Shown here: one piece after another, positions 39,638-43,976 of the stretch
Numbering within the stretch: position 1 is the first letter of the stretch
Layout of the letters: each line of letters opens with the position of its first letter
Assembly: GCA_963828255.1 (NCBI GenBank)
Contig: CAWHDZ010000011.1
Location: 160,001 to 224,000, forward strand
DNA: 64,000 nucleotides
Direction of reading: 5' to 3'
Origin: an uncultured delta proteobacterium
GTDB lineage: Bacteria; Myxococcota; Myxococcia; Myxococcales; Anaeromyxobacteraceae
Notes under the pieces: model-generated
What the model was told of the DNA's origin: nothing
The model's database searches: none
The model's input: only the letters and a program-made list of their open reading frames with translations
Translations under genes and position numbers: made by a program

Positions 39638-40495
39638 TCAGGGAGAGGTGGGCGGGGAGCCGCCGTCCACCTCGTTCAGCCGCCCCGACCGGAACGGCTC
39701 GAGGTCCAGCGCGGCCAGCGCGAAGCCGGCCCTCCGCACGGCGAGCGCCACCCCGGCGCGGCAAGCGAAGGCCCGATCCATCTCCTCCGCCGCGATCTCC
39801 ACCCTCCCGATGAGTCCGTGATCGCGCACGCGGAACTGCCGGAGACCGAGCGCGCGCACGCCCGCCTCGGCCGCCTCGATGCGGGCCAGCCGCTCGGGGG
39901 TCACGGGGGTACCGTGCGGGATGCGCGAGGCCAGGCAGGCCATCTGCGGCTTGTCCCAGGTGGGCAGCCCGTAGGCCTCGCTCCAGGCCCGGACCTCGTC
40001 CTTGGTGAGCCCCGCGTCGGCGAGCGGCGAGATCACCCGGTGCTCGCCCGCGGCCCGCTGTCCCGGGCGGTGGTCGCCCCGGTCGTCGGCGTTGAAGCCG
40101 TCGAGCACGGCGACGAGCCCGAGCCGCGCGCAGGACTCTTCGCAGATCCGGTAGAGCTCGCTCTTGCAGAAGTAGCAGCGCTCCGGGGTGTTCTCCCGGT
40201 AGCGCGGGTCGTCCACCTCGCGGCTCTCGACCTCGATGTGGCGCGCGCCGATCCGCCTGGCCAGCGCCCGGGCCTCCTCGCGCTCCGCGCCGGGCACGCT
40301 GGGCGAATGGGCGGTGAGCCCGACGGCCCGGTCGCCCAGGACCTCGCGGGCCACGGCGAGCACCAGCGTGGAGTCCACCCCGCCCGAGAACGCGACCAGC
40401 ACGCCCCCGACGGCGCGCACGGCGTCTCGCATCCCGTCGAAGCGTCCACGGGACCGGTCGCGCAACCGCGCCCGGTCCTCCTGCGTTGCGGTCAT
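39638..40495 (-). CDS. larE: LarE family ATP-dependent sulfur transferase
   Basis: PP-loop SGGVDS, RCYFCK, DHRPG, ACLASRIP. Confidence 0.9.
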   Translation of the reverse strand: MTATQEDRARLRDRSRGRFDGMRDAVRAVGGVLVAFSGGVDSTLVLAVAREVLGDRAVGLTAHSPSVPGAEREEARALARRIGARHIEVESREVDDPRYRENTPERCYFCKSELYRICEESCARLGLVAVLDGFNADDRGDHRPGQRAAGEHRVISPLADAGLTKDEVRAWSEAYGLPTWDKPQMACLASRIPHGTPVTPERLARIEAAEAGVRALGLRQFRVRDHGLIGRVEIAAEEMDRAFACRAGVALAVRRAGFALAALDLEPFRSGRLNEVDGGSPPTSP

Positions 40496-40504
40496 GCGCG
40501 GATC

Positions 40505-41233
40505 CTACCCGCGCCGCCCCTTCGCCGCCTTCTTCACCTTGGCGGGCGCCGCCGCGGGCTTCTTCGCCGGCTTGGCCGCCTTCGCCGGCTTGGCCGCCTT
40601 GGCCGCCTTCGCCTTGGGCGGGGGGACGGCCTTCGGGGGCTTGGCTCCGCCCTTGCGCGGGCGCAGCCCTCCGGTGAGCAACGCGAACTCGGCGGGGGTG
40701 ACGTACTTCATGTCCACGAGCTTCTGGAAGAGCCGCCCGAGGGCCGCGTCGGGCTTCTCCTGGTCGGTCCGGACGACCAGCTCGGCGTGGACCGGAGGCT
40801 CGTACGGGTCGTCGATCCCGGCCACGTTGGTGATCTCGTGCGCGAGCGCCTTGCGGTACATGCCCTCGGTGTCGCGGGCGATGAGCGTGTCCATGGGCGC
40901 GTCGACGAAGACCTCGACGAAGCGGCGCACCTCCTTGCGCACCGTGTCGCGGGCCTCGCGGAAGGGGGAGAGCGACGCCACCACCACCACGGCGCCGTGC
41001 CGGACCAGCATGCGGGAGATGGTGCCGAAACGTCGGACCGCGGTGTCACGGTCCTCCTTGGTCACGCCCAGGCCGCGGGTGAAGAGCTCGTTCGGCGCGT
41101 CGCCGTCCATCACCTCGGCTGGCCGGCCGGCCGCGACGAAGCGCTTCGAGAGCTGGAGGGCGAGCGTGGACTTGCCCGCTCCCGCCATGCCCGTGAGCCA
41201 GATGACGAACCCCGTCCCGTGCTGCTGATCCAT
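40505..41233 (-). CDS. Divergent adenylyl-sulfate kinase (CysC-like) with Lys/Ala/Pro-rich C-terminal tail
   Basis: WLTGMAGAGKST, DGD, EDR, EVFVDAP, GIDDPYEPP; tail AKAAKAAKPAKAAKPAKK. Confidence 0.82.
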   Translation of the reverse strand: MDQQHGTGFVIWLTGMAGAGKSTLALQLSKRFVAAGRPAEVMDGDAPNELFTRGLGVTKEDRDTAVRRFGTISRMLVRHGAVVVVASLSPFREARDTVRKEVRRFVEVFVDAPMDTLIARDTEGMYRKALAHEITNVAGIDDPYEPPVHAELVVRTDQEKPDAALGRLFQKLVDMKYVTPAEFALLTGGLRPRKGGAKPPKAVPPPKAKAAKAAKPAKAAKPAKKPAAAPAKVKKAAKGRRG

Positions 41234-41358: not shown

Positions 41359-41769
41359 TCAGAGGTCGGCGACCGGCGAGAAGCCCGAATCAGTCCACCT
41401 AAATACCCGTACTTCCATCACTTTACCTGCATCGAGGCCGAGCACGATCTGATCGGCCCCGGGCAGCGCCGGGCCGTTCCCCACGACCGCGCCGGCGAGA
41501 TCCGAGGCCGAGAGCCGCGCCGGACCGTCCACGTGCGAGTGGAAGACGGCCGCGATCCGCCCGCCCTCCCTGCGGAGACGCCGGGAAAGGGCGAGGTGCG
41601 CGGCGGGATCGGCCTCGAAGGCCTGCCCACCCTCCCGGGCCACGTTCCGGACCGGGACCACCTCGAGCTTCCCGGAGGCTCCCTCCACGACGAAGCCGCA
41701 GACCTCGCTCCGCGGGTCGGCCTCGGCCAGGGAGGAGAGCCGGGTGGCGACGGGCGAATAGTCGGTCAC
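41359..41769 (-). CDS. Mov34/MPN/JAMM metalloprotease (Mec-like)
   Basis: EVCG...FHSHVDGPARLSASD (E-xn-HxH-x7-S-x2-D). Confidence 0.92.
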   Translation of the reverse strand: MTDYSPVATRLSSLAEADPRSEVCGFVVEGASGKLEVVPVRNVAREGGQAFEADPAAHLALSRRLRREGGRIAAVFHSHVDGPARLSASDLAGAVVGNGPALPGADQIVLGLDAGKVMEVRVFRWTDSGFSPVADL

Positions 41770-41793: not shown

Positions 41794-42495
41794 TCAGGGG
41801 GCGAGGCCGGCGGCGAGCGGCCCGGCGCAGGCGCAGCCCGGCTGCCGCGCCGTGGCCCGCACGAGGGGCGTGCCCCGGAAGACCTCGATGCGGCGCGCCC
41901 GCGGCTCCTGCGACGCCCCTGTGAGGAGGAGGATCAGCTCCAGCGCGGCGAGGGACCCCATCGTCGCCCCTCCCTCGGCGGTGGGTGCGCCCCCCAGCCC
42001 GGGCCTGGTGGCGCAGGAGTAGCAGGGCGACCCGACCGGCACCGACGTCACCGCGCCGCCCTGCCCGTCCACGTCGGCCACCACGTGCGGGAGCTGGAGC
42101 AGTCGCGCCTCGTCGGCGATGGCCCGGGAGACGTCGGGCGACGAGCCGCAGACGAGGAGCGCCGTGGGGCGCGACCCGGGGCGGAAGAGGTCGGCGGTGA
42201 CGAGGCCGCTGGCCCAGCGGGCGAACCCGGCCAGCGCCGCGCCCCGTGGACGCCCGAGGTCGTCCGGTCCGAGCGCGAAGCCCGCGCCGGCCTCCGGCTT
42301 CACCTCGTCGGGGTCGTCGAACCAGAGCGTCCCGACCCCCGCCGCGGCCAGGTAGTAGGTGGCCGGCGCCACCGCGAGCCCCCCGCCGGTCACGCGGATG
42401 CGGGCCTCGCGCAGCGCCTCCTGCGCCGCCTCTCCCATTCCCGGGAGCAGGAGCTGCCTCGCGTAGCGCGCCACCTCCGCATCGGTCAGGGCCAT
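41794..42495 (-). CDS. ThiF/MoeB/E1-like protein with degenerate adenylation site
   Basis: RYARQLLLPGMGEAAQ, LAAAGVG, PCYSC, PGCAC; lacks GxGGLG and SNLxRQ. Confidence 0.85.
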   Translation of the reverse strand: MALTDAEVARYARQLLLPGMGEAAQEALREARIRVTGGGLAVAPATYYLAAAGVGTLWFDDPDEVKPEAGAGFALGPDDLGRPRGAALAGFARWASGLVTADLFRPGSRPTALLVCGSSPDVSRAIADEARLLQLPHVVADVDGQGGAVTSVPVGSPCYSCATRPGLGGAPTAEGGATMGSLAALELILLLTGASQEPRARRIEVFRGTPLVRATARQPGCACAGPLAAGLAP

Positions 42496-42761
42496 GTCCG
42501 TGCCTCCGCCGGAGCTCCGCGCTCGAGCCACACCCGCCACGTTCCACTTCCCTCCTCGGGCGCCGCCTCGAGCCGGACCACCCGGTGGCCGTCCTCCTCG
42601 GCGCTGCGCGGGACGTTCTCGCGCGGCTCCCCGTCGCGGAGCAGGACCTCGAGGACCTCCCCCTCGGCGATGCGCGAGAGGGCGATGCGGGCCTTCACCC
42701 AGGTGACCGGGCAGGTGTGGGCCCGGACGTCGAGGCGCGCCGAGGGGACCCGGGCGCTCAT
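42486..42761 (-). CDS. TusA/SirA family sulfur carrier
   Basis: LDVRAHTCPVTWVKARIAL...GEVLEVLL; ATGA overlap with the upstream E1 gene. Confidence 0.88.
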   Translation of the reverse strand: MSARVPSARLDVRAHTCPVTWVKARIALSRIAEGEVLEVLLRDGEPRENVPRSAEEDGHRVVRLEAAPEEGSGTWRVWLERGAPAEARTWP

Positions 42762-43465
42762 GCCGGCCCCTGGGTCGAGGCGGCCACGGCGCTGCAGGCC
42801 GGGCAGCCCGCGCGGATGCGGAGGGGCACCAGGCGCGACCGGCCGGAGCGGGCCTCGAAGGCCACGAGCCGACCTGCGTAGGCGCCCCGCTCGCCGGCCA
42901 GGAGGCGCAGGGCCTCGGCCCCCATCAGCGCACCGGCGAATCCGGCCAGGGCCCCCAGCACCCCGGCCTGGGCGCAGGTGGGCACCGTACCCTCGGCCGG
43001 CGGCGCCTCGAAGAGGCAGCGGAGGCAGCCGGTCTTGCCGGGCATGACGGTGAGGAACTGGGCGGTGTAGCGGAGCACGGCGCCGTGGACCAGCGGCCGC
43101 CGGGCGGCGAGCGCCACGTCGTTGGCCAGGAAGCGGGTGGCGAAGTTGTCGGAGGCGTCCACGACCACGTCGCAGCCGCGCACGAGGTCCTCGGCGCAGT
43201 CGGGGCCGAAGCGCAGGTCCCGCCCCTCGACCCTCACCTCGGGATGGAGCAACGAGATGCGCGCCGCCGCGACCGGCGCCTTGCGCTTCCCCAGGTCGGC
43301 GTCGCCGAAGAGGGGCTGCCGGTTCAGGTTGGAGAGCTCGACCTCGTCCTCGTCGAGGAGGACGAGCCTCCCGACCCCTCCCGCGGCGAGCGCCAGCGCG
43401 GCCGGGCCGCCCAGGCCTCCCGCTCCGATGACCAGCACGCTCGCGCCCGACAGCTTCACGGCCAT
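42758..43465 (-). CDS. ThiF/MoeB/E1 adenylyltransferase, N-terminally short
   Basis: GAGGLG, DEVELSNLNRQ, DASDNFATR, GCLRC, PTCAQAGVLG, CPAC. Confidence 0.93.
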   Translation of the reverse strand: MAVKLSGASVLVIGAGGLGGPAALALAAGGVGRLVLLDEDEVELSNLNRQPLFGDADLGKRKAPVAAARISLLHPEVRVEGRDLRFGPDCAEDLVRGCDVVVDASDNFATRFLANDVALAARRPLVHGAVLRYTAQFLTVMPGKTGCLRCLFEAPPAEGTVPTCAQAGVLGALAGFAGALMGAEALRLLAGERGAYAGRLVAFEARSGRSRLVPLRIRAGCPACSAVAASTQGPA

Positions 43466-43479
43466 CCGGACCTTCTAAC

Positions 43480-43854
43480 CTAGAATGAGAGGACGTGCCC
43501 CTGGCCGGCGGTGCGCCACTGGTCGGGGAGGCTGCGGACCGCGTCCAGGTGCGGGCGGGCCGCATCCGGGTCGATCCCGGCCAGCCGGAGCTCGGTGCCG
43601 CAGGCCACGACCTCCACCCCCAGGTCGCGCCTCCCGTCCTCGACCATCTGGCGGAGCGAGCCCACCAGCGAGGCCTCCGGCGCCGCCGGGCAGCCCTCGT
43701 CGAAGCGCCCCTCCACCCAGGCGCGCAGCGGCTCCCCGGAGAGGGCGATCGACACCCGGTGGCCGAATGCGGCCGCCGTGAGCGCGACCGAGGCGGCGCG
43801 CCGGCGCGCGTCCCAGCCGGCGCCTCCGAGCAGGATGAGGCAAGGCTTGCCCAT
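43480..43854 (-). CDS. DsrE/DsrF-like protein
   Basis: ALTAAAFGHRVSIALSGE, VEVVACGT, C-terminal VLSF; RBS GAGGAGG. Confidence 0.7.
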   Translation of the reverse strand: MGKPCLILLGGAGWDARRRAASVALTAAAFGHRVSIALSGEPLRAWVEGRFDEGCPAAPEASLVGSLRQMVEDGRRDLGVEVVACGTELRLAGIDPDAARPHLDAVRSLPDQWRTAGQGHVLSF

Positions 43855-43891: not shown

Positions 43892-43976
43892 GCCCAGGTG
43901 GTGAAACTGGTAGACACACCATCTTGAGGGGGTGGCGCCGTAAGGCGTGCGAGTTCGAATCTCGCCCTGGGCACCA
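43892..43976 (+). tRNA. tRNA-Leu(GAG)
   Basis: GCCCAGG/CCTGGGC acceptor, anticodon GAG, long variable arm, CCA end. Confidence 0.97.

Follow-up and report, generated by a model that had tools for sequence, protein, structure and literature searches.

A sulfur-relay operon with two ThiF/MoeB-family genes

The window (the whole stretch of DNA analysed here, 64,000 nucleotides) contains an operon on the minus strand with the gene order small DsrE-like gene, A, TusA, B, JAB, CysC and LarE. Genes A and B both encode proteins of the ThiF/MoeB fold, and the TusA gene located between them was missing from the first-pass annotation. The features of the locus are as follows.

43480-43854, minus strand: small protein upstream of gene A, possibly DsrE-like, with no Pfam match of its own
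43475-43477, minus strand: in-frame TAG, followed by three codons (KVR) and the ATG of gene A; bars an N-terminal extension
42758-43465, minus strand: gene A, N-terminally truncated ThiF/MoeB adenylyltransferase with the full catalytic motif set, predicted active subunit (235 aa; Pfam ThiF 6.9e-64)
42486-42761, minus strand: TusA/SirA sulfurtransferase with an HTCP motif (Pfam TusA 1.8e-17), overlapping A at its stop codon and B at its start codon
41794-42495, minus strand: gene B, ThiF/MoeB-fold protein predicted to be the inactive subunit; adenylation motifs lost, N-terminal arginine arm and one CxxC/CxC zinc site retained (233 aa; Pfam ThiF 1.1e-12)
42454-42468, minus strand: RYARQ arm of gene B (residues 10-14), mapping onto R11..R14 of MoeB, with R13 equal to MoeB Arg14
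41359-41769, minus strand: JAB/JAMM metalloprotease (Pfam Prok-JAB 2.4e-12; E...HSH-x7-S-x2-D motif in the sequence)
40505-41233, minus strand: adenylyl-sulfate (APS) kinase CysC (NCBIfam TIGR00455 over cut-off)
39638-40495, minus strand: LarE-type ATP-dependent sulfur transferase (TIGR00268 over cut-off)

Three of the four counterparts of the small upstream protein that were scanned have weak DsrE/DrsE_2 matches below the cut-off (best 7e-4). A tRNA-Leu(GAG) gene (43892-43976, plus strand) is divergent from the first gene of the operon. At the other end, the window's CysC possesses a long Lys/Ala-rich C-terminal tail, which also occurs in relatives across the order. Contig cover of the locus in three sequencing runs is patchy in freshwater DNA and in one metatranscriptome, and is uninformative on expression.

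The window's operon contains neither a sulfur carrier nor CysM. Two good ThiS-family matches are present in the same genome, both outside the operon: a ThiS with GGG at its C-terminus, encoded beside thiG, and a MoaD-MoaE fusion with a GG junction. The latter (G000:C15:21011-21664, internal PPVSGG junction) is a candidate substrate of the window's JAB protease. In addition, a full-length MoeZ is encoded elsewhere in the genome, adjoining an O-acetylhomoserine sulfhydrylase-like gene (named from sequence), and most relatives also have MoeZ. A third, weak ThiF-family match is presumably TcdA.

Gene A retains the catalytic motifs and lacks the arginine arm

The sequence read in gene A is MAVKLSGASVLVIGAGGLG, together with SNLNRQ, DASDNF, CLRC, PTC and CPAC. 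In an ungapped phmmer alignment with E. coli MoeB (1JW9; offset 24), residues G14-G19 of gene A constitute the P-loop GxGGLG, and R49, K62 and D106 correspond to R73, K86 and D130 of MoeB. The zinc pairs are C147/C150 and C221/C224, and the crossover-loop cysteine is C164 (MoeB C187). The earlier claim that gene A has complete catalytic motifs is thus borne out by both the motifs and the alignment. These motifs are also kept in relatives: among the 109 sequences of the A set, R49 and K62 are each found in 99, D106 in 101 and Cys164 in 98. The alignment to MoeB is free of insertions, and no inserted CYS/SCCH domain or UFD is found in the 235 residues. Both A and B score under every listed cut-off of the NCBIfam MoeB/ThiF/MoeZ equivalogs.

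Residue A6 of gene A is located opposite MoeB residue 30; the protein starts at about MoeB residue 28, and approximately 27 N-terminal residues are absent. The lack of an RYxRQ helix and the in-frame TAG upstream had been recorded previously, and both are confirmed here. The KVR|M start is identical in a 97%-identical relative (L002), indicating that the short start is not an assembly error. Moreover, a stop lies 3-10 codons from the start of A in all nine complete same-genus A genes, not counting the window's own. An N-terminal extension or a frameshift of gene A is excluded by the in-frame TAG and the conserved start in relatives. A pattern search found no RYxRQ arm upstream of A in 108 of 109 A loci; the lone regex match (L216) lies in apparently non-coding sequence ahead of the likely start. 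In several Myxococcaceae loci (L185, L189-L193 and L197), the A protein has a His-rich N-terminal leader replacing the arm, again with no RYxRQ.

Gene B retains the arm and has lost the adenylation motifs

The AF2 model of gene B (pLDDT 85.8) matches ThiF/MoeB structures in Foldseek with TM scores of 0.78-0.80. Its glycine loop reads GGGLAV, SNLxRQ and DxxDN are absent, and CYSC and CAC are present. This agrees with the first-pass reading of RYARQ, one CxxC (PCYSC), a CAC, the altered loop and no SNLxRQ. A further statement of that annotation, that PTC has become PTA in gene B, has to be abandoned: the crossover loop of B is about nine residues shorter than that of A and contains no cysteine, and the PTA is not conserved among B orthologues, so the two motifs are not homologous.

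Neither GxGGLG nor [ST]NLxRQ occurs in any of the 77 B sequences examined. Across the B set (n = 111), R13 is found in 107 sequences, Q25 in 106, L49 in 108 and G53 in 110, and the P-loop is variable. No other functional residue of B is as conserved as the arm arginine, which is invariant in an 18-sequence alignment that extends down to 25% identity. Gene B is under purifying selection like A, with an omega of about 0.18; the dN/dS check proposed for the degenerate copy therefore yields a value comparable to that of A and not near 1. The pairwise NG86 medians in three groups are 0.18, 0.21 and 0.36 for B and 0.18, 0.21 and 0.27 for A (36, 36 and 28 pairs), all of them probably inflated by high GC3.

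Genes A and B occur together

We assembled 111 B loci, comprising the window, 45 named records, 60 loci under our own handles and five second copies; L002-L024 were omitted as duplicates of records. Gene A is adjacent to B in 109 of them, and the other two stop at contig edges. Within the family, B is found at orthologue level in 43 of 44 genomes and A in 32 of 33, and the genome missing from both counts is one 670-contig assembly, which shows a fragment of B where a contig ends. Broader profiles extend the range of the pair to other families of the same order and to three families beyond it. Public records contain identical proteins from Anaeromyxobacter dehalogenans, Vulgatibacter incomptus, and Myxococcus, Corallococcus and Pyxidicoccus species, and annotate both genes as ThiF/MoeB family.

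Co-occurrence across Myxococcota, a check suggested in the first-pass annotation, was also examined in 46 genomes chosen mostly for weak B scores. A and B are adjacent in 33, both are missing in 12, A is alone in one and B is alone in none; the counts lack independence owing to the relatedness of these genomes. A profile scan of the 33 A-B loci detected TusA in 23, a GG-ending carrier in 19, CysM in 12, JAB in 24, CysC in 26 and LarE in 27. Many relatives have a CysO/MoaD-like carrier gene located between A and B, frequently accompanied by the gene of a CysM-type synthase. The single genome among the 46 that keeps the short E1 with no B found is G257 (95% complete), where it lies in a CysO/CysM/JAB operon (L188). 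Two further loci, L176 and L180, had appeared to be of the same type, giving three apparent cases; inspection by eye revealed an arm-like stretch in both that the pattern had missed. No claim made here depends on the unpublished genome G169.

In the complete genome G043, A and B are the only genes over the ThiF cut-off, and a single ThiS is located beside thiG. No full-length E1 is available in this genome, which leaves the A-B pair as the sole candidate for activating ThiS. Further ThiF-family genes are present in the other four genomes checked alongside it. Among the 46 genomes, seven have A as the sole match to the A profile at E <= 1e-25.

Where A is intact, B carries the arm arginine in 97 of 98 loci, and in the remaining one the arginine lies across an assembly frameshift. 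Assembly edges or frameshifts interrupt another four copies of A. Substituted catalytic residues in A are found at seven loci, which represent about two lineages (five are second copies, and the other two come from two genomes of a single genus). At four of these seven loci, B keeps the arginine; at one it lacks the arginine, and at two the entire arm.

The five second copies (L132-L136) are located at unrelated loci with no TusA or JAB nearby, and their A lacks SNLxRQ and D130; judged from their sequences, both subunits look dead yet remain together. In the two complete genomes of one genus (L209 and L210), the catalytic motifs of A and the arm of B are lost, and the carrier, JAB, CysC and LarE are retained. 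A full-length MoeB-like protein in a small genome in which B was not found (L247:612-1280) has the arm RFESH, with no equivalent of Arg14.

Fusions, structural model and phylogeny

A B-profile search of 1.84 billion representatives yielded several fusions among the best 150 matches. These include three B-A proteins (P0201, P0298 and P0270), two A-TusA-B proteins (P0186 and P0194), one A-linker-B protein (P0217), two carrier-B proteins and one B-JAB protein, all of them singletons or pairs in the protein collection. The B-A fusion P0298 is recorded from a Myxococcota bacterium. When P0298 was used as query against 301 genomes of the phylum (E <= 1e-62, with no positive control), zero matches were returned, which is uninformative; with the N-terminal half of P0201 as query, close relatives were absent among the 15 matches.

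The AF2 model of P0298 has a pLDDT of 84.2 and a pTM of 0.88. In a VIA alignment, its residues 12-396 superpose on BilD (8TZ0), the top structural match, with a Z of 31.7 and an rmsd of 3.5 over 345 aligned residues, and the model matches the IAD and AAD of UBA1 and UBA6 with a Z of about 27. Foldseek with the same model matched single ThiF domains only. The model shows that B-type and A-type domains can be modelled as a pseudo-dimer. The modelled protein is a different one, approximately 43% identical to A over the aligned part, and AF2 has seen MoeB dimers and UBA1. The arm region is of low confidence in the model (pLDDT 46-65 for residues 1-30).

Further fusions are found within the operons. 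The carrier is joined in frame to the N-terminus of B via GG in L070:5716-6684, L062, L067 and L077, and in the proteins P0163 and P0197. Such a fusion would need cleavage to expose the carrier C-terminus, perhaps by the adjacent JAB. Other cases are A-TusA (L177:5835-6716), A-carrier (L236, a single open frame with GG at its end) and B-JAB (L233 and P0283).

In a quick IQ-TREE tree of 85 rows, all 26 A rows, four full-length E1s and five of the six active halves of fusions are placed on one branch with a support of 95, and MoeZ is located apart. The B rows form long branches whose placement the tree leaves unresolved.

Candidate mechanism and alternative readings

We consider that A and B probably constitute a heterodimeric E1 with one active site that adenylates sulfur carriers, the binding and the chemistry being proposed by analogy with MoeB, ThiF and MoeZ. 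TusA is known from work in E. coli for its role in persulfide relay, and JAB-type cleavage of MoaD-MoaE fusions occurs in other bacteria. In the proposed reaction, A would bind ATP and adenylate a small sulfur-carrier protein at its C-terminal glycine; B would contribute both the partner surface and the arm with Arg13 that is missing from A. TusA would then hand persulfide sulfur to the adenylated carrier, producing a carrier thiocarboxylate that would be used by CysM, if encoded, or in the synthesis of thiazole and molybdopterin. Trimming or recycling of the carrier would fall to the JAB protease, and that of the window could release MoaD from the MoaD-MoaE fusion. The CysO/MoaD-like carrier and CysM in the operons of relatives point to cysteine synthesis. 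Since both have been lost from the window's operon, the candidate substrates there are the ThiS beside thiG and the MoaD half of MoaD-MoaE.

In MoeB and ThiF, the arm arginine comes from the neighbouring subunit and acts on the site of its partner, according to PMC13139853; the same paper reports that the arginine fingers of both enzymes are non-essential and that TcdA has none. B may be mainly structural, with the arginine raising the rate without being essential. A structural need for B is plausible because the deletion in A takes the whole arm and not only the arginine. The first-pass annotation had proposed an obligate heterodimer with one active site. Its one-site heterodimer part gains support from the co-occurrence, the purifying selection on B, the fusions and the fusion model, whereas the part that makes the pair obligate through the arginine is unproven. 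Several observations also count against a heterodimer: UBA3 is reported to work without APPBP1 (PMC6031683), no B was found in G257, whose short E1 lies in a CysO/CysM/JAB operon, shared operon membership would make two genes co-occur and decay together with or without binding of their products, the arginine of B is kept in four of the seven dead-A loci, and a full-length MoeZ is encoded in the window's genome.

These observations bear on several other readings. It is unlikely, in our estimate, that A is active alone as an armless homodimer in the manner of TcdA, with B as a separate accessory such as a carrier-binding adaptor or an optional regulator exchanging into dimers. The non-essential arginine fingers (PMC13139853) and the short E1 of G257 agree with such a homodimer, as does the report in PMC6031683 that UBA3 activates NEDD8 without APPBP1; in addition, the in-frame fusions of B to the carrier (L070, P0163 and P0197) or to JAB (L233 and P0283) tie B to those partners. 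However, the best-conserved residue of B is the one that acts on the partner site in MoeB/ThiF (PMC13139853), and the site of B itself is gone. Moreover, B is never found without A, the B-A fusion models as a pseudo-dimer, and the arm is lost in three of the seven dead-A loci and in none of the intact-A loci. Given that the window's genome and most relatives encode a full-length MoeZ, A could instead borrow its arm from that protein, with an unrelated role for B. This is very improbable: no gene of G043 other than A and B passes the ThiF cut-off, A is the sole match to its profile (E <= 1e-25) in seven of 46 genomes, and the conserved arginine of B would be left unexplained.

Another reading accepts the heterodimer and places it in ubiquitin-like conjugation of the SAMP/TtuB style, via Cys164 of A and reversed by JAB, rather than in sulfur relay. 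The retention of Cys164 in 98 of 109 A sequences and the presence of JAB in 24 of 33 loci, against CysM in only 12, would fit with this. But the neighbours TusA, CysM, CysC and LarE are sulfur genes, CYS domain and UFD are both absent, inspection of the neighbourhoods revealed no recognisable E2 gene, and MoeB and ThiF carry the same cysteine and form no thioester according to PMC13139853; we give a conjugation role very little credence. The loss of all adenylation motifs and the long branches could also suggest that B is a decaying, functionless duplicate. Such a pseudogene is hardly tenable, as it is already contradicted by the omega of about 0.18, similar to that of A, and by the occurrence of B in 43 of 44 family genomes and across the phylum.

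Relation to known E1 systems

A shares the fold and the catalytic residues of E. coli MoeB and ThiF (1JW9 and 1ZUD), and B shares their fold and arm. MoeB and ThiF are homodimers with two sites, whereas here the arm and the active site are divided between two genes. The pairing of inactive and active adenylation subunits is a feature of SAE1-SAE2 and NAE1(APPBP1)-UBA3, and the binding of A to B is predicted here. Residue A3 of gene A is opposite SAE2 residue 13, a similar start point, and the N-terminal parts of SAE1 and APPBP1 are matched by the B profile. Unlike SAE and NAE, the A-B pair contains no CYS/SCCH, FCCH or UFD, no E2 is seen in the inspected neighbourhoods, and the setting is one of sulfur relay. 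Convergence with the eukaryotic heterodimeric E1s is more likely than common origin. The pair is predicted to work like the IAD/AAD core of SAE, NAE, UBA1 and BilD, outside those families.

BilD of type II Bil systems (8TZ0/8TYZ) has one active site, with Arg9 provided by the inactive domain, as described in PMC10557695. BilD is a single polypeptide with a CYS domain and an E2 partner and acts in anti-phage conjugation, whereas A and B are two genes of about 235 aa each. Yeast Tcd1-Tcd2 is a heterodimer of ThiF-family paralogues with one catalytic centre (PMC13139853). The inactive Tcd subunit is required for the solubility of its partner and gives a non-essential arginine, the mutant of which loses 26% (same source). 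This system differs in being eukaryotic, of the TcdA branch and tRNA-modifying, and its active subunit lacks the whole-arm deletion seen in A.

The operon corresponds to the class 4e sulfur operons of PMC1779556, whose gene set comprises a carrier, JAB, a rhodanese-less E1, SirA/TusA and APS kinase; the window's operon contains the rhodanese-less E1, SirA/TusA, JAB and APS kinase. In the part of that paper available, one E1 per operon is described and no truncated/dead pair. Mycobacterial MoeZR sulfurates both CysO and MoaD, according to PMC3227635. An unrelated cluster (L260:397-2283) contains small ubiquitin-like, E2-like, JAB-like and ThiF genes, and by eye resembles a bacterial ubiquitination operon.

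Implications

In the literature covered, including the available parts of the reviews PMC12596934 and PMC11354881, no published case of a two-gene bacterial MoeB heterodimer was found; subscription papers (such as the 2009 E1-superfamily survey) and supplements lie outside this scope, and their neighbourhood tables may list inactive E1 copies. All known bacterial E1-like proteins except the fused BilD are homodimers, as stated in the preprint PMC10557695. Precedents for the A-B pair are the fused BilD and yeast Tcd1-Tcd2.

The pattern itself is real and conserved, and well supported by comparative evidence; the binding of A to B and the role of the arginine are predicted. One of the two genes labelled ThiF/MoeB, gene B, has no adenylation motifs, and its annotation is corrected accordingly.

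With some reserve, we favour the view that the core activation of sulfur carriers in Myxococcota is carried out by a minimal IAD/AAD E1 encoded by two genes. The split pair, the B-A fusions with the domain order of UBA1 and BilD, and the A-TusA-B fusions would then be living stages between the MoeB homodimer and the canonical E1 layout, which would have been reached within sulfur metabolism and ahead of any CYS domain or E2, and the pair would be the sole ThiS activator in at least one complete genome. Cultured species of Myxococcus, Corallococcus, Vulgatibacter and Anaeromyxobacter possess the two-gene pair, which would allow direct tests of what the inactive half and its arginine contribute. 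If this view is true, the pair would be the simplest model for the transition from the symmetric MoeB dimer to the active/inactive design of ubiquitin-type E1s.
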